This document shows positions 200 through 33,872 of a DNA stretch of 46,608 nucleotides, in pieces. Location: positions 1 to 46,608 of the forward strand of contig JAEULC010000297.1 in assembly GCA_016792605.1 (NCBI GenBank), read 5' to 3'. Each line of letters opens with the position of its first letter. Position 1 is the first letter of the stretch. The translations under genes and the position numbers were made by a program. The notes beneath the pieces were generated by a model. The model was not told the DNA's origin. It was given only the letters and a program-made list of their open reading frames with translations, and made no database searches. Source of the DNA: Rhodospirillales bacterium (GTDB taxonomy: Bacteria; Pseudomonadota; Alphaproteobacteria; JAEULC01).

Positions 200-276
<77 letters not shown>

Positions 277-16441: not shown

Positions 16442-18448
16442 TTATGGGAGGGCGTCCAGCGGCACGGGATAAACCGACTCGCCGCCCAGCGAGCCGCCGT
16501 CAAGCGCGACCCAGCTATCGGTGTTGTTGTGCAGTTCCTCGTAGAAGCGGATCTTCGACTTCAGGCGGTCGATGAAGGCCTGCTGCTCACCGATGCTCCA
16601 GGACTGCCAGAGATCCTGGCTGATGTTCAGCACGTCGCTTTTATATGGCAGCCCGTCCAGGTATTCGCCGATCAGCCCGGTCTCCGCCAGGTTCTTGGCC
16701 CCGCCCGCGCTCTTGGTCACGCCGGCGACACCGCGCGGCGCCCGCGCCATGGCGGCGGCGGCGCTCTGCAGGTCGGTAAAGAAGCCTTCCGGCGATATCT
16801 GGGCCGCTTCGCCCGCCTTGATGATCGTCTTCAGCACCTGCTGCAGGTCGCTGATCTGGTCGCGCGACATCAAAAGGCGCACGTCCAGCGTCGCCAGCGT
16901 CGGCCGGTCGAAGTCGCGGTCGCTGACCCAGGCCTCGAACACCGGCGGCGCCTGCGTCCCCTTGCGCTTGCCCAGATAGGCGAGCTGCATGGCGTTGCCC
17001 ACCAGCGCCGCCTTGCGGTCGATGCCGGACGCGTCGGACTCCTTCAGCGGCTCGGGCGTGGGCGGCTTTTTGGCCGGCTCGGACAAGGCCTGGCGAACCG
17101 TCTTTACCTGCTGCGTCAAGGACGTCGCCAAGCGCTCGATCGTCTCGCCGAAGCGGTCGACCGAACCGGCCTCGACCGGGATGTACAGGCTGTCCTTGCC
17201 CTGGAAGCGCGTCAGCATCTCGTACTGGGTCGCCGCGGCGGCGTGGTCGCGGGCGCCTTCGCGGGTCTTCAGATGCACGGCGAAGAGCGCAATTCCAGCG
17301 GCCTGTGCGAACTCGCGAACCTCGGAGGTGAACATGCCGCTGCTCGCCAGCGGATGATTGCCTTCGAGCGCGCTGGCATCGGAGATCAGCACCACGATCT
17401 TCGCGGCATACTGGTCCCAGTCCATCTCGGTGAGCGCCGACATCACGCCGGCATAGGCGTCCTCGGGAAGCTGCGGACCTGAGGATACTTTCGCCGGCAC
17501 GACCTGCGCGGTGAGGTCCAGGAATTTCTGGCCTTTGACGCCGTCCTTCAGCGAGGCGAAGGTTCGCGTCGTATATTCAAGATCCGGCACGGACTTTGTG
17601 CTGCTGCGATAGGCGACGAGGCCGAAGCTGACGTCGCCCTCCAGCTTCTCGGCCTCGACCCGCTTGTAGACCCGCGCGATGACGTCGCGCATCCGGTCGA
17701 TATAGGGGCCCATCGTGATCGTCGTATCGACCACGAACACGATGCCGGTCTTGAATCCGACCAGCATGTCCTGCGGCTTCGCCTGGTCGGCGGCGGGCGG
17801 TGGCGGATCGTTCAGCGACACCGAGGCGATCTTCAGCGCCGTGGCCGGCTGGCCCTTCTTGGTAAGCGCCTGCTGGTGCTCCAGGATCGGCAGCAGGTAG
17901 AACTGCTGCTGGATGTCGACATGCTCCGGCGGCTCGATCGACAGGACGGGCGAGTTCGCCGGCGGCTTGCCGGAAATGATCGCTTCGTAGAGCGCGCCGT
18001 ATTTCTGCGCCGGATCCGGCGCCTCGATCAGTTCCATCAAGGGCGGCCGGTCGCGCAGCAGCAGCACGCGCTTGCGGTCGGCCGGATTGGTGAAGGCTAC
18101 GGTCAGGGCCTGTTTCCATTCGATCGCCTGCTTGGCATCGATCCAGCCCGTGGGGCCGGATTCGACCGAGGCGCCCACCTCGATCATGGCGGTGTTCTGC
18201 GCCCGCTTGCGGCCGTACACGTAGAAGACGGTGAACGGGGTGGTGTCGTCCTTCGCCACCGCGGCGTCGGGCTGGGCGTCCTTCAGCACCTTGGTCCCGG
18301 GCCGGGTCAGGACGCGCTGGTAGAGCGTTTTCTTGCCGTCCAACAGCAAAGGCTTGCGATCCTGGGCAAAGGAGGGCCCGGCGGGGATTCCGAGGGCGCC
18401 GACCAGCATCAGCGCGGCGATCAGCCGCCGCTTCGACGAGACCTTCAT
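16442..18448 (-). CDS. Periplasmic von Willebrand factor A (vWA) domain protein
   Basis: Signal peptide MKVSSKRRLIAALMLVGALGIPAGPSFAQD. The vWA-like core is GIVFVVDTTITMGPYIDRMRDVIARVYKRV...VSFGLVAYRS...KIVVLISDA, with a DxTxT variant at the MIDAS position (17714-17728). N- and C-terminal flanking domains have no recognisable family. Confidence 0.8.
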   Translation of the reverse strand: MKVSSKRRLIAALMLVGALGIPAGPSFAQDRKPLLLDGKKTLYQRVLTRPGTKVLKDAQPDAAVAKDDTTPFTVFYVYGRKRAQNTAMIEVGASVESGPTGWIDAKQAIEWKQALTVAFTNPADRKRVLLLRDRPPLMELIEAPDPAQKYGALYEAIISGKPPANSPVLSIEPPEHVDIQQQFYLLPILEHQQALTKKGQPATALKIASVSLNDPPPPAADQAKPQDMLVGFKTGIVFVVDTTITMGPYIDRMRDVIARVYKRVEAEKLEGDVSFGLVAYRSSTKSVPDLEYTTRTFASLKDGVKGQKFLDLTAQVVPAKVSSGPQLPEDAYAGVMSALTEMDWDQYAAKIVVLISDASALEGNHPLASSGMFTSEVREFAQAAGIALFAVHLKTREGARDHAAAATQYEMLTRFQGKDSLYIPVEAGSVDRFGETIERLATSLTQQVKTVRQALSEPAKKPPTPEPLKESDASGIDRKAALVGNAMQLAYLGKRKGTQAPPVFEAWVSDRDFDRPTLATLDVRLLMSRDQISDLQQVLKTIIKAGEAAQISPEGFFTDLQSAAAAMARAPRGVAGVTKSAGGAKNLAETGLIGEYLDGLPYKSDVLNISQDLWQSWSIGEQQAFIDRLKSKIRFYEELHNNTDSWVALDGGSLGGESVYPVPLDALP

Positions 18449-27195: not shown

Positions 27196-28854
27196 ATGGC
27201 CATTCCGCAGCTGATCCGCACCACCGACACCGCCACGCTGGTTCCCGTCGACGTCGGCGGCCAGCCCGTCGTCCGCGCCGCGACCGAGCTGCGCGACTTG
27301 CTGGAAACGCGGCTCGGCCCGGGCTCGTCGGGCTTCTTCGCCGAGCCTGCCGTCGCCGGCCGGCCGGGCGCGGCGGTGGACCGGGTGTCCTGGTTCGGCG
27401 AGCAGCCCGGCGAAGGCCTCGCGCTGTCGGCGCTGACCGGCGCCACCAAGACCCAGGCCGAGGACCAGCTCCGCCAGACCCTGCGTCGCCTCGCCCCGCT
27501 GATCGCCGATCCGCGCCACGGGCCGCTGCTGCGCGCGGCGCTGGTCGTGCCGGGCGACGACGACATCCGCATGGTCGCCGGCGACCCCGTGCTGACAAAC
27601 TGGGGCTTCGCGCCCCAGGGCGTCGACCCCGCCGATCCCGCCCAGATCGACCGCCACTGGCAGGCGACGCTGGGCCGCTTCGCCGCCTTTCCCTCGCCCT
27701 GGCGCGCCGGTGCCGCCGTGCTGCCGCCCGACCCCGCGCCCAACCTCAGCCCACCGCCCGCGCCCGCTGCCCCTGCCATGCCCAGCGCGCCGCCTCCCCT
27801 CGCGGCACCCGCGCCCGCGCTGCTGCCCTGGTACCAGCGCCCGACCGCCTGGGCTGGCTGCGCCGTGGCGATCCTGGTCGCGGGCGTCGCCATCGGCCTG
27901 CTGCTGCGGTTCCTGCTGCCGCCGGCCCAGGTCGCCACGCCCGAGCGACTCCGCGCCCTGATCGCGGCCCAGGTCGAGGTCAATCGCGGCCTCGAGCAGC
28001 AGGTCCAGCGCCTGCGCGGCGCGCTCGCCGGCAATGTCTGCACCGCCGACAACCCGCTCGGCGCCGGGCTGCAACAGCGTCCGGTCTTCCCCGTGGACGG
28101 CGAGCCGAAGAAGACCGAGGCGCCGCCCAAGGACGGCCCCAAGGGCCCGGATGCAAAACCCGATCTGGCGCAGGGCGACCGGCTGATCGACATGATCGAT
28201 GCCGGGACGGTGCTGGTGATCGCCGAGAACAGCAAGGGCACCGGCTTCTTCGTCGCGCCCGGCATGGTGGCCACCAACCGCCACGTCGTCGAGACCGCGA
28301 AGAACGGCAAGGCCTACATCATCAGCAAGGCGCTCGGCCGCGTGGTGCAGGCCGAGATCGTCGCCTCGACGCCGCAGGACCCCGCGCTCCTGCGCGACTA
28401 TGCGCTGCTCAAGGTCGATGGCGCAGCGTTGGAGAAGGTGAAGGTGCTGCGCATCACCGCGACGCTCGATCGGCTCGACCAGGTCGTGGCCGCCGGCTAT
28501 CCCGGCTTCGTCATCAACCACGACGCGCACTTCCAGGCGCTGATGAAGGGCGACCTCACCTCGGTCCCGGACGCCGTGGTCAGCAATGGGGTCGTCAGCA
28601 CGATCCAGTCCCAGCCCCAGGGCGCCGGCGCGATCATCCATACCGCGATCCTGTCGCACGGCAATTCCGGGGGGCCGCTGCTCGACCTGTGCGGCCGCGT
28701 CGTCGGCATCAACACGCTGATTGCGCTGGATGAGAAATCGCACCGCCAGAGCAACATCTCGCTGACCGCGCCCGACCTGGTGCAGTTCCTGAAGACCAAC
28801 AACGTGCCGGTGACGCTGTCCGACGGGCGCTGCCAGGCGCCGAAGCTGGGCTGA
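27196..28854 (+). CDS. Membrane-tethered trypsin-like (S1/chymotrypsin-fold) serine protease with N-terminal cytoplasmic domain
   Basis: 552 aa. The order is an N-terminal domain of about 150 aa, a Pro-rich segment, TM AWAGCAVAILVAGVAIGLLLRFLL, a coiled-coil and then the protease domain. The triad contexts are ATNRHVV (His 28282-28284), DYALLKV (Asp 28396-28398) and GNSGGPL (Ser 28666-28668). Confidence 0.8.
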   Translation: MAIPQLIRTTDTATLVPVDVGGQPVVRAATELRDLLETRLGPGSSGFFAEPAVAGRPGAAVDRVSWFGEQPGEGLALSALTGATKTQAEDQLRQTLRRLAPLIADPRHGPLLRAALVVPGDDDIRMVAGDPVLTNWGFAPQGVDPADPAQIDRHWQATLGRFAAFPSPWRAGAAVLPPDPAPNLSPPPAPAAPAMPSAPPPLAAPAPALLPWYQRPTAWAGCAVAILVAGVAIGLLLRFLLPPAQVATPERLRALIAAQVEVNRGLEQQVQRLRGALAGNVCTADNPLGAGLQQRPVFPVDGEPKKTEAPPKDGPKGPDAKPDLAQGDRLIDMIDAGTVLVIAENSKGTGFFVAPGMVATNRHVVETAKNGKAYIISKALGRVVQAEIVASTPQDPALLRDYALLKVDGAALEKVKVLRITATLDRLDQVVAAGYPGFVINHDAHFQALMKGDLTSVPDAVVSNGVVSTIQSQPQGAGAIIHTAILSHGNSGGPLLDLCGRVVGINTLIALDEKSHRQSNISLTAPDLVQFLKTNNVPVTLSDGRCQAPKLG

Positions 28855-28858
28855 GGCG

Positions 28859-29803
28859 ATGGCGCGCCCGGTCCTCATCGCCCATACGCCGCGCGCGAGC
28901 CTGCGCCCCCTGGGGGCGCAGGGCCAGACCGTCGCCCAGGCCCAGCAGCAGGTCGTGGCGGTGATCGCCGCCAGCCTGACGCCGCGCCATGCCCTGCTCT
29001 TCGCCGAGCCCGTTACCGATCCGGCGCGCGACCAGATCGCCTGGTACACCACCGCGGACGGCAGGGCGCAGCGCCTGGCCGAAGCGGCGCCCGAGGCGCA
29101 GCAGAAGGCACGCGAGGCGATCGCGATGCTGGCCGACGATATCCGCAAGCTCGCCGCCGGCTACATCGCCGCCCCGAACCCGCAGCAGCGCCAGCTCGGC
29201 CAGCTCATCGAGCTGGCGCAGAGCTTCCCGGGTGAGGAATGCGTGTTCCTGGTCGGCGAGCAGCCAGTCATCGTCGCCTGGGGCTATGCCTCGACCGCCG
29301 CCAGCGCCGCCGAGCCGACCACGCTGACCCGCTACGGCGTCCGCCCCGCCGGCCGGACGCGCGCCGCCCGTGCCGAGGCCGATGCCGCCGCCGCCCAGGC
29401 AGCCGCGGCCGCTTCTGCCTCTCGGGCTTCCGCTGCTTCCCGCCACGCGGCGGCGCCCGCCTGGTTGTTCTGGATCCTATTCCTGCTCGCCGGCCTGGCG
29501 GTGGGCAGCGGCGTCGCCTGGGCGATCCAGAGCGGCCCGCTGCCGATCGTCTGGACCGCCGGCGTGCCGACGGTGGTCTCCGACCCGCTCGCCGAGGGCC
29601 GCGCCGCCGAGGCCAAGCTGCGCCAGGCGATCGCGGACCTGTCGCTGCAGATCGCGCAGAAGCAACTGCAATGCACCGTGCCGCCGGCCGACGGACCGGC
29701 CCGGGCGCCGGGCGGTAGCGACTCGCCGCCTCAGACCCGACCGCAGCCAACGGATACGCCGCCGGCTCCGGCAGCGCCACCGGCCGGAGCCACGAAACCC
29801 TAG
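28859..29803 (+). CDS. Bitopic membrane protein sharing the N-terminal domain of the preceding protease; coiled-coil and Pro-rich tail
   Basis: 314 aa, starting 4 nt after the upstream stop. The N-domain aligns with the 27196 protein: LFAEP...IAWY...VFLVGEQPVIVAWGYA against FFAEP...VSWF...IRMVAGDPVLTNWGFA. The TM is WLFWILFLLAGLAVGSGVAWAI. Confidence 0.7.
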   Translation: MARPVLIAHTPRASLRPLGAQGQTVAQAQQQVVAVIAASLTPRHALLFAEPVTDPARDQIAWYTTADGRAQRLAEAAPEAQQKAREAIAMLADDIRKLAAGYIAAPNPQQRQLGQLIELAQSFPGEECVFLVGEQPVIVAWGYASTAASAAEPTTLTRYGVRPAGRTRAARAEADAAAAQAAAAASASRASAASRHAAAPAWLFWILFLLAGLAVGSGVAWAIQSGPLPIVWTAGVPTVVSDPLAEGRAAEAKLRQAIADLSLQIAQKQLQCTVPPADGPARAPGGSDSPPQTRPQPTDTPPAPAAPPAGATKP

Positions 29804-29824: not shown

Positions 29825-30445
29825 CTACTCGATTTTCAGTTCCACCTGAGCGCCGTCTGGCAAATCGGCAATCTGGCGCGCGATGTCGGCGCGAGCGCGC
29901 ATCAGGGGCAACAGGTCCGCGGCGTAGAGGTTGTCGACGGTGAACTCGCCGCCCATTACGAAGGGGATTTTCGGCGCCAGGCGCTGATCGTGCTTCAGTG
30001 CGCCGTGCGTCGCCTGCCATTGATGCGCCAGCGAATGCCCGACCATCACGTCATAGTCGCGCAGCAGCAACGTGACAAACGCCTCGAGCGTGTCCGCGGT
30101 CCGCGTGAGATCGCCGGTCTCGGGATCCAGCGTCCATACCGCGCCGCTTCGCAGGCCGAACTGGCCGCCGAAGATATCCTGACCGAAGAAAAGCACGTCC
30201 GCGGGAATCGCCGGATAGGCGCCGCGCCAGCCATCTGCACTGTTGACGTTCTCTAGCGATAGAGGCTTGGCCGGGTCGCTGGGGTAGATATGAAGCGCCG
30301 CCTCGAACGCCAGAAATCCGTTCCGTTGCGCCAGCAAGCCCGCCAACTCACGCTCAACCGCGTTTGCACCGACAAAAGCCGGCGCGGCCTTGGAGAGGGC
30401 CGGCCCACCGATTTCGAGTAACTTGGAAACAGACGTGGAGGACAT
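29825..30445 (-). CDS. SMI1/KNR4 (SUKH superfamily) immunity-like protein
   Basis: 206 aa, cytoplasmic (no signal peptide). SUKH-like features are LAGLLAQRNGFLAFEAALHIY and VLFFGQDIFGGQFGL..GAVWTLDPETGDL...TLEAFVTLLL. The C-terminal segment is PFVMGGEFTVDNLYAADL. It starts 3 nt after the stop of the nuclease gene. Confidence 0.6.
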   Translation of the reverse strand: MSSTSVSKLLEIGGPALSKAAPAFVGANAVERELAGLLAQRNGFLAFEAALHIYPSDPAKPLSLENVNSADGWRGAYPAIPADVLFFGQDIFGGQFGLRSGAVWTLDPETGDLTRTADTLEAFVTLLLRDYDVMVGHSLAHQWQATHGALKHDQRLAPKIPFVMGGEFTVDNLYAADLLPLMRARADIARQIADLPDGAQVELKIE

Positions 30446-30448
30446 TCG

Positions 30449-31120
30449 CTACTGTGTCCTTAGTTCAACTTTGGTGTTGTCGGGATACTTGCGGCATTGG
30501 GCGCCAATACAGGCTCCGGCGCCCCGATTGTCGGAGGGTGGGACCGGCCGCACGCTGGATCCCTTGCCGCCCTCCTTGAACATGGCCGGCGGATACTCGT
30601 CGCGGTCCTTGCCGGGTTGCCGCGGCTGGCCCTGCATCGACGCGGCCCGCCGCTGCGCCGCGCCTTGCCGGTCGATCGTCACGACAGCAGGCTTGCCGGC
30701 TTTCTGCGCGTCCTCGATATGCTTTGCGCTTTCGGGATACTTGTCGCGCGGAACGACGACAACAGGCCGTTGTGCCGCCTTGGCTTTGGCGTCCGCGTCG
30801 GCTTTGGCTTTCGCATCGGCCCTTGCCTTGGTATCGGCGTCGGCCTTGGCCTTTGCGGTGGCCGCGGCCTTCGCTTTCGCGTCGGCGGCAGCCTTGTCAT
30901 CGGCGGCCTTCTTTTTCTGCCGCTCGGCTTCTTCCCGCTTTTGTTGTTCCTGGCGCTTCAGATCCTGCTCGCGCCGCAGCCTGTCCTCGTCGTTCTTGCT
31001 GGCCGCGACCAGCACGCGCTTGGTCGCGCTCTCCGCAGCGGCGATATTCGCCGTCGGAAAGAGCATCTGCCCGGCGAACAAGGCGAGGAACGCAAGTACG
31101 CGAAAAACAAAACCGCACAT
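30449..31120 (-). CDS. Secreted NucA/NucB-family deoxyribonuclease with Ala/Lys/Asp low-complexity linker
   Basis: Signal peptide MCGFVFRVLAFLALFAGQMLFPTANIAAA. The C-terminal ~105 aa read KYPESAKHIEDAQKAGKPAVVTIDRQGAAQRR...GKDRDEYPPAMFKEGGKGSSVRPVPPSDNRGAGACIG...YPDNTKV. This aligns motif-for-motif with Bacillus NucB (RYPETGSHIRDAI...TIDRDGADKRR...DRDEWPMA..EEGG...V.PSDNRGAGS...YPDGTRV). Confidence 0.9.
   Translation of the reverse strand: MCGFVFRVLAFLALFAGQMLFPTANIAAAESATKRVLVAASKNDEDRLRREQDLKRQEQQKREEAERQKKKAADDKAAADAKAKAAATAKAKADADTKARADAKAKADADAKAKAAQRPVVVVPRDKYPESAKHIEDAQKAGKPAVVTIDRQGAAQRRAASMQGQPRQPGKDRDEYPPAMFKEGGKGSSVRPVPPSDNRGAGACIGAQCRKYPDNTKVELRTQ
30771..30912 (-). repeat. Imperfect short tandem repeats encoding (A/D/T)AKAKA low-complexity linker inside the nuclease gene
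   Basis: On the plus strand there are reiterated GCCTTGGC/GCTTTGGC units. They translate on the minus strand to AAADAKAKAAATAKAKADADTKARADAKAKADADAKAKAA. Confidence 0.7.
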
Positions 31121-31168: not shown

Positions 31169-32005
31169 TCAGGGCCCCTTGGCGCAAAACATCGAGAAGG
31201 CCTGGATGACATTGGCGCCCTTGTCGACCTTCATCATGTCCCAGGGCATCGTCTGGCTGTAGCTGTTCGGGTTGATCATGTCCTTGAAGGACTGCATCAG
31301 CTTGCTCTGGTCGACGCCGACATTGACCATCGGCGCCACCGCGACGGACAGGCCCGTGGCGGCCCAGCCCTTGCAGTATTCGGTTACTTGCGTGCCCCTG
31401 GTCACCGCCTTGGGATCGGGCTCGGCTTCGACCGGATCGCCGGCGGCGTCGATGCGCTCGGCCCAGACCGGCGCGGCCGGGGCGAGCGCGAAGACGGCGC
31501 GGCCATCCTTGCGCTTCTGCATCGACGCAACCTTGCCGCAGGCAACGCGCAGGCCGCCGACGAAGGCGTTGCGGTTCGCGGCCACACCTTCGAACCCGGC
31601 GACGACCAGGCCCGGCGGGCATTCCATGAACACGGCCGTGCCGCCATCCGGATTGCCGGCGTACTCGTCGCCATCATAGGCGTCGTCCGCCACCCAGCCG
31701 CAGGCGCCCTTGTCGCAGGTCACCTCGGCGCAGACCGGCCGAATGTAGTCGAGTACCGGGCCCTGCTTGATCTGCACGCCGACGATGGCGTCGCGCTTGT
31801 CGCAGCGCAGCGTGCCGATCGCCACGCTCTGCAGCGAGGGGCCCTTGCCTCCGACCTGGGACAACTCCACCTCGAACGCGGCCGGGTTGCCGCCACTGTT
31901 CTTCATCTCCAGGCCCTGGGCCCGGAGCGTGGAGGACGCGGTGCCCAGCATGGCGGCGGCGATCAGAAACTGCGTGACCTGGCGTGCCATCCTGCCCTCG
32001 CGCAT
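31169..32005 (-). CDS. Secreted hypothetical protein (Cys-containing, beta-rich)
   Basis: Only the C-terminal ~278 aa of the 609-aa ORF are protein-like. The signal peptide is M(REGRM)ARQVTQFLIAAAMLGTASSTLRAQG, with an alternative start at 31990. Eight Cys are present and no family was recognised. Confidence 0.65.
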   Translation of the reverse strand: MREGRMARQVTQFLIAAAMLGTASSTLRAQGLEMKNSGGNPAAFEVELSQVGGKGPSLQSVAIGTLRCDKRDAIVGVQIKQGPVLDYIRPVCAEVTCDKGACGWVADDAYDGDEYAGNPDGGTAVFMECPPGLVVAGFEGVAANRNAFVGGLRVACGKVASMQKRKDGRAVFALAPAAPVWAERIDAAGDPVEAEPDPKAVTRGTQVTEYCKGWAATGLSVAVAPMVNVGVDQSKLMQSFKDMINPNSYSQTMPWDMMKVDKGANVIQAFSMFCAKGP

Positions 32006-32015
32006 CGTCCTGTCC

Positions 32016-32735
32016 CTAATTCGTCTTCCGGACCGAGGGCTGCGTCGAAGTCTGGTTCTGCACCGCGCGCATCTGCTCGTCCAGCTTGCGCTTGCGCTCG
32101 GCCTCGGCGGCCTCCTTCTGGCGCTTCGTCTCGGCCTCCTGACGCTGGCGATCCAAGGCGGCGAGGCGTTGCTGGTCGAGGCTCTTCTGCGCCTCGGCCT
32201 GGCGGCGCTGGCGATCGGCCTGGGATTCGGGGCTGTTGTTCTTGAGCGCGAGCGCCTTGCGCTGCTCGGCCTGGCGCGCCTCGGCCTCGGCGCGGGCCTT
32301 GCCTTGGCCGTCGCGGCGCGTGGCGGCGTCGGCCGCGGTCTTGGCCTCGGCATCCCGGCGGATCTGGGCGTTGCGCGCCTCGGTCTTCGCGCGCTGGTCA
32401 TCGCGTTGCTTCTGCAGCGCGGTATTGCGCACGGCATCGGTCTCGGCGCCCGCCCGATTCTTGAGCGCGGCGTCGCGGCGCTGCTGCTCCTGGTTCGCCG
32501 TCCGCACCGACTGCTCCTGCGCGGCGCGGCGCTGTTCGGCGGCCTGGCGAGCCTGTTCCTGCTCGTAGCGCTGACGGATAAGCCGCTGCGCCATCGAGTC
32601 ATTTGGCGATGCCACGGGTTGCTGAACGGCCGGCGCGGCCTCGGTGCCCTGGGCCCGCGCCGGGGCGGGCGCCGGGGTGGTGAAGCTGCCAGCGGCGAGG
32701 GCCAGGAGGCCGAGGCGAAGCCAGGCAGGATGCAT
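32016..32735 (-). CDS. Secreted Q/R/A/E-rich coiled-coil low-complexity protein
   Basis: Signal peptide MHPAWLRLGLLALAAGSFTTPAPAPARAQG, followed by about 200 aa of charged Q/R/A/E-rich sequence. GGAGG lies 4 nt upstream of the ATG at 32735. Confidence 0.65.
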   Translation of the reverse strand: MHPAWLRLGLLALAAGSFTTPAPAPARAQGTEAAPAVQQPVASPNDSMAQRLIRQRYEQEQARQAAEQRRAAQEQSVRTANQEQQRRDAALKNRAGAETDAVRNTALQKQRDDQRAKTEARNAQIRRDAEAKTAADAATRRDGQGKARAEAEARQAEQRKALALKNNSPESQADRQRRQAEAQKSLDQQRLAALDRQRQEAETKRQKEAAEAERKRKLDEQMRAVQNQTSTQPSVRKTN

Positions 32736-32900
32736 GTCCCCTCCCATTTGATAGGGTCGGCCCGTGGCGCCGAGGCGCTGAAATGCCTGCGGCGCCCCCG
32801 TTCCCTGTGACCAGCATCACTTGAACGGCGGCGGCCTTCAAGTACTATGCGCCGATCCGGATAGCGGGACAGGAGCGCCATGCTCCACGGGGGTGTGCCG

Positions 32901-33872
32901 ATGTTCAGACTCTTCCACTCGCTCAGGAACTCCAGCATTGCGGGACTGGCCGTCGTGATCGCGATGCCGCCGCTCCCCGCCTTCGCAGGCTCGCCCATTC
33001 AGCTTGCCCAGGCCGCCGAGATCAACAAGCAGGCCGAACCGATCGCCGCCGGCGACGACGCAGCCCGGCGTGCGGCCCAGGACCGTGCCCAGCGCGAGCA
33101 GGCCGAGCGCAATCGCCAGGCCTACGAGGACCAGAAGCGCCGGCAGGCCGCGCAGCAGAAGCGCGACGAGGAAGACGCCAAGCGGCGCATGGAAGCCCAG
33201 CGCCGCGGCCAGAATCCCTATTCGCAGGGCAACTACAACAACGATCCGGGCGTGCAGCGCCAGAAGCTGCTCGACCGCCAGGCCGAGCTCAAGCGCCAGG
33301 AACAGGAACGCGAGCGCCAGGCCAAGGCCAAGTTCGACGCCGACATGCGCCGGGCCGAGGCGCTGGACAAGCAGCGCCAGCAGAACCAGCAGCGGCAGGT
33401 CCGACCGATGCCGCAGCAGGACCAGGCGCGCCTGAACCAGCAGCGCCAAGCGGAACAACAGCGGTCCCAGGCGGCCCAGGAACGCCAGCGCCAGCAGCAG
33501 CTGCAACAGCAAAAGCAGGCCGACCAGCAGCGTCAAGCCCAGCAGCAACGCGCGCAGCAGGACCAAGCCCGGCAGGCCCAGCTGCGACAGGCCGCCGCCG
33601 CGTCGGACAAGCAGCGACAACAGCAACAACAGAAGCAGGCCGACCAGCAACGAGCCCAGCAGCAGCGCGCGCAACAGGATCAAGCCCGCCAAGCCCAGCA
33701 GCGTCAGCAGGAGGCGGCGCGTCAGCAGGCACAGCGCGCTCAGCAGGAGCAAGCTGCCCGGGCACGAGCGGCGGAAGCCCAGCGCGCGCAGGCCGCCGCC
33801 GCACAGCGCTCGCAACGCCGCGTGGGCGACTCTGATGCGGTTCCAGATGTGGCTGGCGCAGTCGCTCAGTGA
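32901..33872 (+). CDS. Secreted glutamine-rich low-complexity protein with internal repeats
   Basis: Signal peptide MFRLFHSLRNSSIAGLAVVIAMPPLPAFA; the ORF could also start at 32880. More than 200 aa are Q/R/A-rich, including the duplicated block QQQKQADQQR(Q)AQQQRAQQDQARQAQ. Confidence 0.65.
   Translation: MFRLFHSLRNSSIAGLAVVIAMPPLPAFAGSPIQLAQAAEINKQAEPIAAGDDAARRAAQDRAQREQAERNRQAYEDQKRRQAAQQKRDEEDAKRRMEAQRRGQNPYSQGNYNNDPGVQRQKLLDRQAELKRQEQERERQAKAKFDADMRRAEALDKQRQQNQQRQVRPMPQQDQARLNQQRQAEQQRSQAAQERQRQQQLQQQKQADQQRQAQQQRAQQDQARQAQLRQAAAASDKQRQQQQQKQADQQRAQQQRAQQDQARQAQQRQQEAARQQAQRAQQEQAARARAAEAQRAQAAAAQRSQRRVGDSDAVPDVAGAVAQ
33507..33708 (+). repeat. Two imperfect ~82-bp direct repeat units (about 120 bp period) inside the Q-rich gene
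   Basis: Unit 1 (33507-33590) is CAGCAAAAGCAGGCCGACCAGCAGCGTCAAGCCCAGCAGCAACGCGCGCAGCAGGACCAAGCCCGGCAGGCCCAG. Unit 2 (about 33627-33708) is CAACAGAAGCAGGCCGACCAGCAACGAGCCCAGCAGCAGCGCGCGCAACAGGATCAAGCCCGCCAAGCCCAG. Unit 2 has one codion fewer. Confidence 0.7.

Follow-up and report, generated by a model that had tools for sequence, protein, structure and literature searches.

The window analysed here, the whole 46,608-nt stretch of contig JAEULC010000297.1 from a Rhodospirillales bacterium, carries on its minus strand two adjoining genes, which encode a 223-aa protein with a NucB-type DNase domain and a 206-aa protein predicted to protect against it. We consider it highly probable that the first gene encodes an active, exported DNase which is neutralised by the product of the second, and that this function is unrelated to the neighbouring Srf locus. 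The two open reading frames (ORFs) occupy positions 29825..31120 exactly and comprise the following features:

30449..31120, minus strand: gene of a NucB-family DNase with predicted export, 223 aa; ORF with ATG start and GGAG 8 nt upstream, consisting of signal peptide, long helical charged spacer and nuclease domain.
31034..31120, minus strand: predicted Sec signal peptide, codons 1-29; R7, hydrophobic V8-F21, P22 and an AAA-E cleavage motif with the cut after A29, from sequence features.
30770..31033, minus strand: charged low-complexity spacer, codons 30-117; from composition, predicted helix and DNA repeats.
30452..30769, minus strand: NucB-type beta-beta-alpha-metal DNase domain, codons 118-223; from profile, match to NucB in the PDB, conserved residues and predicted fold.
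29825..30445, minus strand: gene of a putative acidic, cytoplasmic Tdi1/SUKH-like immunity protein, 206 aa, ATG start; from context, family profiles and predicted fold.

The stop codon TAG of the nuclease gene is followed by three nucleotides (cga) and then by the ATG of the 206-aa gene. A first-pass annotation of this DNA, made from its letters alone, had let the second gene begin 3 nt downstream of the first, and both ORFs were confirmed where it had placed them. A simple scan of the minus strand found neither a sigma-70-like promoter nor a convincing terminator. The same pair was recovered in identical form from nine contigs of several sequencing runs. In a DNA comparison with plasmids, the best similarities were distant (67-72%) and lay in replicons of Azospirillum, Rhizobium and Paraburkholderia; the host is probably an uncultured alphaproteobacterium.

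Profile searches with DNase_NucA_NucB and SMI1_KNR4 had been proposed as a check on the two proteins. For the nuclease, the Pfam profile DNase_NucA_NucB (PF14040) matched with 28 bits, above its gathering score of 23.8, and phmmer against the PDB found Bacillus licheniformis NucB (5omt, E=6.5e-28) in an ungapped alignment of aa 119-218 with 52 of 100 residues identical, covering the whole mature domain. An AlphaFold2 (AF2) model of the 223-aa protein reached a mean predicted local distance difference test (pLDDT) score of 89.7, with 95-98 in the nuclease domain, and was matched by Foldseek to the NucB structures 5omt, 6ejs and 9fj7 with template modelling (TM) scores of 0.91-0.92 and a root-mean-square deviation of 0.9-1.2 Å. 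In NucB, D93, E94 and N117 have metal-binding or catalytic functions, H53 and S108 support them, and R70, R77 and R92 contact the DNA (PMC5758888). All eight residues are kept in the 223-aa protein (H134, R151, R158, R173, D174, E175, S189 and N198, corresponding to H53, R70, R77, R92, D93, E94, S108 and N117) and are invariant or nearly so across an alignment of 34 close relatives. Since the NucB fold is matched and all characterised residues are present, the 223-aa nuclease is very probably an active enzyme, and the earlier claim of a NucB-like domain holds at the level of profile, fold and active site alike. The domain is basic, with 20 Lys and Arg against 12 Asp and Glu. Two cysteines, C204 and C209 (GAGACIGAQCR), hardly vary within the toxin clade described below and are absent from Bacillus NucB (GAGSWVGNRLN).

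The relatives of the nuclease were studied in the 120 best database matches to its domain, which show 60-71% identity over the domain. Most of them are C-terminal tips of polymorphic toxins with PT-VENN (CdiA-type), RHS/TEN_YD-shell or PT-HINT N-terminal parts, several bearing source names such as 'filamentous hemagglutinin' or 'RHS repeat-associated', and in retrieved loci the domain terminates Rhs proteins of 1041-1490 aa as well as a protein from an actinobacterium that carries T7SS_signal. Small proteins, in which a signal peptide and a Ser-rich, Lys-rich or charged linker precede NucB, make up about 20 of the 120. The toxin domain is thus found C-terminal to varied N-termini (PT-VENN/CdiA, RHS/TEN_YD-shell, PT-HINT, T7SS_signal or a signal peptide only), as is usual for a polymorphic toxin. 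Relatives are already publicly annotated, as 'NucA/NucB deoxyribonuclease domain-containing protein' and, for the partner, 'SMI1/KNR4 family protein'. The motif 'GH, N, N, E' given for 'Tox-NucA' by Zhang et al. 2012 presumably belongs to the Serratia/Anabaena NucA type rather than to PF14040, and the two were not equated here. NucB-like C-terminal domains of Rhs and WapA proteins are toxic, and for WapA-CT of Streptococcus suis the adjacent immunity gene gives partial rescue (PMC12704120); NucA/B-type Rhs C-termini have further been predicted in Aeromonas (PMC12396204) and Stenotrophomonas (bioRxiv 10.64898/2026.07.13.738213).

The small versions with a signal peptide and linker also fit another role, namely that of a housekeeping secreted or periplasmic DNase with an inhibitor for self-protection, as known from barnase-barstar, from NucA-NuiA of Anabaena and from NucA-Nin of B. 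subtilis. Such an enzyme would break down DNA outside the cell or in the periplasm and so serve nutrient scavenging, biofilm remodelling or the restriction of incoming DNA, while the 206-aa protein would only guard the cytoplasm against prematurely folded enzyme and no other cell would be targeted. We see this as a real possibility that falls short of being probable; it concerns the role only and leaves the biochemical pairing as it is. Bacillus NucB, with 52% identity, is itself a secreted enzyme that degrades biofilm and extracellular DNA (PMC5758888). With relatives at 60-71% identity being toxin tips, however, the domain stands nearer to delivered toxins than to this Bacillus enzyme, and the structure paper on the latter mentions no inhibitor for secreted NucB (PMC5758888).

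The 206-aa protein has no signal peptide and is acidic (25 Asp and Glu against 16 Lys and Arg), so that its charge and that of the basic nuclease domain are complementary. Its own Pfam matches stay below the gathering thresholds, both for SMI1_KNR4 (PF09346; E=0.17, 13 vs 25.4 bits) and for T6SS_Tdi1_C (PF08906; E=0.096, 13 vs 27.4 bits), and sequence searches with this protein alone against NCBIfam and the PDB gave nothing significant. The family to which it belongs is large, with 2060 representatives of 50%-identity clusters at E<=0.001 and 564 at E<=1e-30, and its members are more telling: 14 of 25 match SMI1_KNR4 (best E=1.2e-5), four SUKH_6 and five T6SS_Tdi1_C (E<=0.1), while precomputed PF09346 matches lie on P0008, P0017 and the RhsI of Acidovorax. 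A family profile searched against PDB sequences reached Agrobacterium Tdi1 Atu4351 at E=0.046. Nearly all residues conserved in the family are present in the 206-aa protein.

The AF2 model of the 206-aa protein (pLDDT 95.3, predicted TM score 0.91) gave three Foldseek matches in the PDB at probability 1.0, each over about 200 columns: Tdi2 8fzz_B (E=5.9e-7, TM 0.62/0.65), Tdi1 8g0k_B (TM 0.68/0.72) and Atu4351 6itw (TM 0.52/0.49). They are the only significant ones, all are immunity proteins against DNases of type VI secretion systems (T6SS), and their sequence identity is 13-14%. Next in order came 2icg (rank 4, E=0.068, TM 0.44/0.54) and Syd 3ffv (rank 12, E=1.3), both of which we take to be SUKH members. 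Judged from the model, the Tdi fold extends along the entire 206-aa protein, which is better called Tdi1-like, with a SUKH-like N-terminal part and a Tdi1_C-like C-terminal part, than plain SMI1/KNR4. The family-level matches to SMI1_KNR4 and SUKH_6, together with the fold, are suggestive of membership in the SUKH superfamily. Because its partner is a NucB nuclease with a Sec leader and the window holds no T6SS, we describe the protein as Tdi-folded and do not assign it to the Tdi family. The SMI1/KNR4-like features noted earlier are therefore convincing for the family, by profile, and in the modelled structure, but not in the 206-aa sequence itself, which stays under the Pfam threshold.

The pairing of the two genes recurs well outside this organism. 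Over its full length, the 206-aa protein is 38% identical (E=6e-53) to the gene that directly follows a NucB-tipped orphan CdiA C-terminal region (CdiA-CT) in Enterobacter ludwigii (L005) and 40% identical (E=2e-55) to the one that directly follows a NucB-tipped Rhs-CT in Acidovorax (L006). When an alignment of the immunity family was run against one genome per species, 49 loci were found, spanning Pseudomonadota, Actinomycetota, Cyanobacteria, Acidobacteriota, Myxococcota, Verrucomicrobiota and others. A near-complete NucB domain lies directly upstream on the same strand in 25 of them (two frameshifted, one without a start codon), and remnants of a nuclease precede the immunity gene in three more, so that 28/49 have a complete, broken or remnant NucB; the distance from the NucB domain to the immunity homologue ranges from -3 to about 110 nt, whether the domain belongs to a CdiA-CT, an Rhs-CT or another protein. 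The remaining 21 are orphan immunity genes. Individual cases include nuclease remnants of 25 aa (L030, L059), frameshifted nucleases (L014, L058) and an orphan that adjoins CdiI_3 (L002). Orphan immunity genes and toxin remnants are a pattern typical of polymorphic toxins.

In the reverse test, the 80 metagenome loci with the highest similarity to the nuclease domain were taken, without regard to the partner gene. A member of the immunity family was present in 59 of these, directly downstream in 58 (within 40 nt in 57) and upstream in one. Five of the 21 loci without it offer less than 300 nt of downstream sequence. The family is missing from 16 of the 75 loci with at least 373 nt downstream, and the pairing is therefore strong but not obligate. 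Other genes consisting of signal peptide, linker and NucB also keep an immunity homologue, downstream in L064 and L015 and upstream in L063, L065 and L108; the case that the first-pass annotation had named as refuting its reading, orthologues that lack a linked immunity gene, is thus not what was found, even among versions that have nothing but a signal peptide for export. Given the toxin-tip clade, the paired loci in both directions (59/80 and 28/49) and the predicted Tdi/SUKH fold, the earlier proposal of a nuclease toxin with a cognate immunity-type gene is supported.

Among these loci, L063 (4591-5441), L065 (4594-5438) and L108 form a sub-group in which a signal peptide and a Lys-rich amphipathic linker precede NucB, and in which a shortened immunity homologue (~136 aa) lies upstream with a 4-nt overlap. 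Their contigs carry genes for SSB, an SNF2 helicase, DUF29 or HipA and have a phage- or plasmid-like look.

The number of orphan, truncated or frameshifted homologous loci (for example L014, L018, L023, L030, L058 and L059) raises the question whether the pair of the window could itself be a decaying leftover from the C-terminal cassette of a polymorphic toxin, with expression or function already lost, a reading to which the missing sigma-70-like promoter would also lend itself. We find this very unlikely. Neither ORF is interrupted, no catalytic residue is missing, nearly all conserved immunity residues are present, and the identical pair was recovered from the nine contigs mentioned above. 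The nuclease has its own start codon, ribosome-binding site and complete signal peptide, and is not a truncated fragment of an Rhs or CdiA protein.

The N-terminal half of the nuclease sets it apart from the large toxins. R7, the hydrophobic stretch V8-F21, P22 and the sequence A27-A28-A29 before E30 were recognised by inspection, and the AF2 model shows an N-terminal helix at aa 2-16 with low pLDDT; aa 1-29 thus have the features of a Sec signal peptide that is probably cleaved after A29. The following spacer, aa 30-117, has 88 residues (28 Ala, 17 Lys, 11 Asp, 8 Arg and 7 Glu), of which the first part is rich in Glu, Arg, Gln and Lys and the last ~47 aa are rich in Ala, Lys and Asp. A Sec signal followed by an Ala/Lys/Asp spacer of ~45 aa had been described in the first-pass annotation. 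The signal features fit that description, whereas the spacer is longer; since it runs from aa 30 to 117, the ~45-aa stretch is its second half only. In the AF2 model, aa 26-116 form one continuous alpha-helix of about 91 residues and ~13.6 nm, with pLDDT >90 for aa 41-100. On the DNA level, the spacer consists of degenerate 18/24-nt repeats, with tandem repeats at 30782-30896.

A Pfam scan of the nuclease detected no delivery domain of type V (T5SS), type VI or type VII (T7SS) secretion systems, in agreement with what had been noted before. A dedicated delivery or trafficking domain is thus lacking, and as the N-terminus offers only a Sec-type leader followed by a helix of low complexity, the delivery route is either different from that of Rhs and CdiA proteins or absent. 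This plain leader, with neither delivery nor receptor-binding domain, would suit a housekeeping DNase. Sec substrates, on the other hand, cross the membrane unfolded, so a dedicated inhibitor of high cost is less expected for such an enzyme. Toxins exported by Sec or a type II secretion system (T2SS) only are counted among the polymorphic toxins by Zhang et al. 2012, who state that they are the most prevalent class (PMC3482391); the missing delivery domain therefore limits a claim of contact-dependent delivery and not the identity of the cassette.

The helix allows a further reading, in which the pair is a contact-independent, Sec-released DNase bacteriocin and the helical leader carries NucB to or through the envelope of the target cell. 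The Ser-rich or Lys-rich amphipathic leaders that occupy the position of the helix in related genes could then be the same carrying element, and the leader would amount to a minimal module for delivering such a cassette of a polymorphic toxin. In a weaker variant, a leader common to the secreted charged proteins of the island described below could dock the nuclease on an Srf-associated surface structure. We regard the bacteriocin as improbable.

The two genes lie within a high-GC island of ~22 kb (window ~11700-34000; GC 0.65-0.76, GC at third codon positions (GC3) 0.82-0.94), which is flanked by ordinary ABC-transporter and amino-acid-metabolism genes with GC3 of 0.63-0.83. Its genes encode an SH3_3 protein, an FGE-sulfatase-like protein, probable FtsX/ABC ORFs, a VWA-like protein of 668 aa, SrfB, SrfC, a 371-aa protein, a trypsin-like protein of 552 aa, a 314-aa protein and three secreted charged proteins, and the cassette sits between p314 and pX. 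It had been suggested that export or delivery might depend on the neighbouring machinery, here the Srf ('NTPase') locus, so that the nuclease would be a cargo or effector of SrfABC. In favour of this are the proximity of the two and the composition of the leader, which is similar to that of p243, p330 and the 266-aa protein found in this slot in a relative. Comparative data largely refute this suggestion, to which we give hardly any credence. Searches by tblastn with ten island proteins (SrfB, SrfC and eight others) found no homologue in the 6 kb to either side of any of the 49 genome loci with the immunity gene, the window's own organism excepted. The GC3 of the nuclease gene, in leader and domain alike, and of the immunity gene is 0.76-0.77, against 0.88-0.94 in the flanking island genes. 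A related contig, L066, has the island in the same gene order (SrfC 89%, SrfB 84%, trypsin-like protein 72% and pX 73% identical), but between its p314 and pX homologues the nuclease and immunity genes are absent and a different gene for 266 aa stands on the other strand; DNA similarity to L066 stops at ~29683 and resumes at ~31176. From the absent Srf linkage, the difference in GC3 and the cassette-free relative it follows that the cassette was acquired separately, in a slot whose content varies. The pair is independent of the Srf island.

The likeness of the leader to the charged island proteins was examined as possible homology and dismissed. Against p243, p330 and the 266-aa and 278-aa proteins of L066, blastp gave composition-corrected E-values of 0.014-1.7, and Smith-Waterman scores lay 0.9-3.5 standard deviations above those of shuffled sequences, with 4-181 of 1000 shuffles reaching the observed score. 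The motif SK.D..RLRRE, apparently common to them, did not reach significance when tested by shuffling of 11-mers. A search for insertion scars or flanking repeats around the cassette yielded only short repeats at chance level and the internal repeats of the linker. A role in anti-phage defence was likewise discarded, as PADLOC had no matches for either protein and PHROGs one weak low-complexity match.

Several further features of the island and its surroundings were recorded. The genes at 32016-32747 (minus) and 32880-33872 (plus), and those at 16458-17258 and 18143-18979 of L066, encode a signal peptide followed by 200-300 aa rich in Glu, Arg, Gln, Lys and Ala, with no Pfam match; one such gene fills the slot of the nuclease-immunity pair in L066, and its likeness to the nuclease leader is compositional only. 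The trypsin-like 552-aa protein (27196-28854, plus) and the 314-aa protein (28859-29803, plus) have in common an N-terminal domain of ~160 aa, each matching the L066 homologue of the other at 25-28% identity, with no Pfam match and a hydrophobic segment after the domain in each. The gene at 31169-31990 (minus), 48 nt upstream of the nuclease, encodes an apparently secreted, cysteine-rich protein of ~270 aa without Pfam match that is 73% identical in the related island; the 609-aa ORF listed there is extended too far and runs into the p243 gene in a different frame. The 1155-aa ORF of SrfB (19906-23373) probably starts later, as the SrfB of the relative has 1010 aa and follows a 339-aa gene, the counterpart of the 325-aa ORF at 19344-20321 that overlaps the SrfB ORF; this may be an SrfA-like gene. 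A tRNA-Met (CAT) lies at 200-276 (plus), near the left end of the window and far from the island.

Weighing these results, we hold it very likely that the two proteins pair biochemically as toxin and immunity protein. Some points speak against this interpretation or against its antagonistic part. After export, the Sec-dependent enzyme no longer shares a compartment with its cytoplasmic inhibitor, which makes immunity an indirect need. Neither the protein nor its surroundings in the window account for release from the producer or for crossing the envelope of a target cell: no T2SS, T5SS, T6SS or T7SS genes were found in the window, an absence that also counts in favour of a housekeeping DNase, and in a probably Gram-negative alphaproteobacterium a Sec leader alone brings the enzyme only to the periplasm. 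To these are added the sub-threshold Pfam scores of the 206-aa protein and the 16 metagenome loci without this immunity family. A housekeeping enzyme, for its part, is hard to square with a partner family that is the same as for CdiA-, Rhs- and T7SS-delivered versions and that also occurs as orphan immunity genes, and with a cassette that is accessory and recently acquired instead of being a conserved part of the genome. Between interbacterial antagonism, by a DNase that would be diffusible or exposed at the surface, and the degradation of extracellular or periplasmic DNA, antagonism appears slightly more likely, favoured by the toxin-clade ancestry, by the immunity genes kept in the other Sec-only versions (L064, L015, L063, L065 and L108) and by the accessory, mobile character of the pair.

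The toxin-immunity interpretation can be put as a sequence of steps. A two-gene effector-immunity cassette would have been acquired horizontally, its first gene encoding a NucB-family, metal-dependent and sequence-non-specific DNase. This enzyme would cross the inner membrane unfolded via Sec and, after cleavage of the signal peptide, present a nuclease domain of ~105 aa at the end of a charged single helix of ~13 nm. The second gene is probably translationally coupled to the first, and its product, an acidic protein of predicted Tdi1/SUKH fold, would stay in the cytoplasm, bind the basic nuclease domain 1:1 and inactivate it. It may thereby shield the DNA of the producer from enzyme that folds before export and, if the enzyme can re-enter cells, also from enzyme released by siblings. 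The cassette would be the same exchangeable unit with which CdiA, Rhs, Hint and T7SS toxins end at their C-termini, here equipped with a plain Sec leader. For comparison, Tdi proteins disable Ntox15 toxins by insertion, splitting the toxin fold (PMC10470768).

Much of this is as expected. Earlier work has described toxin C-termini of the NucB type, immunity of the SUKH type against toxic nucleases, and polymorphic toxins with Sec export only, and for annotation the main consequence is that a tempting link to the neighbouring Srf locus is corrected. Modestly new are the full-length Tdi fold predicted for the NucB-linked immunity family, the long single-helix leader seen in the model, and the sub-group with a shortened upstream immunity gene in phage- or plasmid-like contigs. 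PDB searches with the nuclease by phmmer and Foldseek returned free NucB only and no NucB-type toxin-immunity complex; a structure of the pair would therefore show how a Tdi/SUKH protein blocks a beta-beta-alpha-metal nuclease.

Compared with known systems, the pair follows the logic of barnase-barstar, Anabaena NucA-NuiA and colicin E9-Im9, in which a dangerous exported nuclease is encoded beside a tight-binding acidic inhibitor, although the folds of both partners are unrelated to those found here. Colicins, unlike the nuclease of the window, contain domains for receptor binding and translocation and lack a signal peptide. Nin, the inhibitor of NucA, is presumably unrelated to the Tdi/SUKH-type protein. 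Bacillus NucB (5omt; PMC5758888) corresponds in nuclease fold, catalytic residues and 52% identity, and is a small Sec-exported enzyme, as is predicted for the nuclease of the window, but lacks the 88-aa helical spacer and the clade-specific C204 and C209.

On the immunity side, SUKH (SMI1/KNR4) proteins (PMC3482391) resemble the 206-aa protein in following a nuclease toxin, and an orphan of its family also stands next to CdiI_3 (L002); the 206-aa protein differs in its score below gathering (13 vs 25.4 bits) and in its extra Tdi1_C-like C-terminal part. The Tde/Tdi pairs (Ntox15) of the T6SS of Agrobacterium and Bacteroidales (6itw, 8g0k, 8fzz; PMC10470768) agree in the Tdi fold, in a weak Tdi1_C signal and in having a DNase as partner, whereas identity is 13-14%, the nuclease is of the NucB beta-beta-alpha-metal type instead of Ntox15, and the window has no T6SS. 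NucB or SUKH proteins are not the subject of the recent papers on Tde5 (JBC 2026) and on Tde/Tdi of Bacillota (mBio 2026). The immunity protein would thus share its fold with T6SS Tdi proteins though the toxin fold differs and, if a Tdi-fold protein does neutralise a NucB-fold nuclease, the Tdi scaffold is not tied to Ntox15.

The closest likeness is to the NucB-tipped Rhs, WapA and CdiA toxins, named examples of which are WapA-CT1/Imm1 of Streptococcus suis (PMC12704120), Rhs2 of Aeromonas hydrophila (PMC12396204) and the Rhs-Ct families of Stenotrophomonas (bioRxiv 10.64898/2026.07.13.738213). The nuclease belongs to the same clade, with 64-69% identity over the domain, the downstream immunity family is shared, at 38-40% identity over the full length with the genes that follow the orphan CdiA-CT of E. 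ludwigii and the Rhs-CT of Acidovorax, and gene order and tight spacing are alike, but the nuclease of the window has no VENN, RHS, PAAR, Hint or LXG part. One exchangeable NucB-nuclease/immunity cassette thus appears to serve CdiA, Rhs, Hint, T7SS and plain Sec leaders in many phyla.

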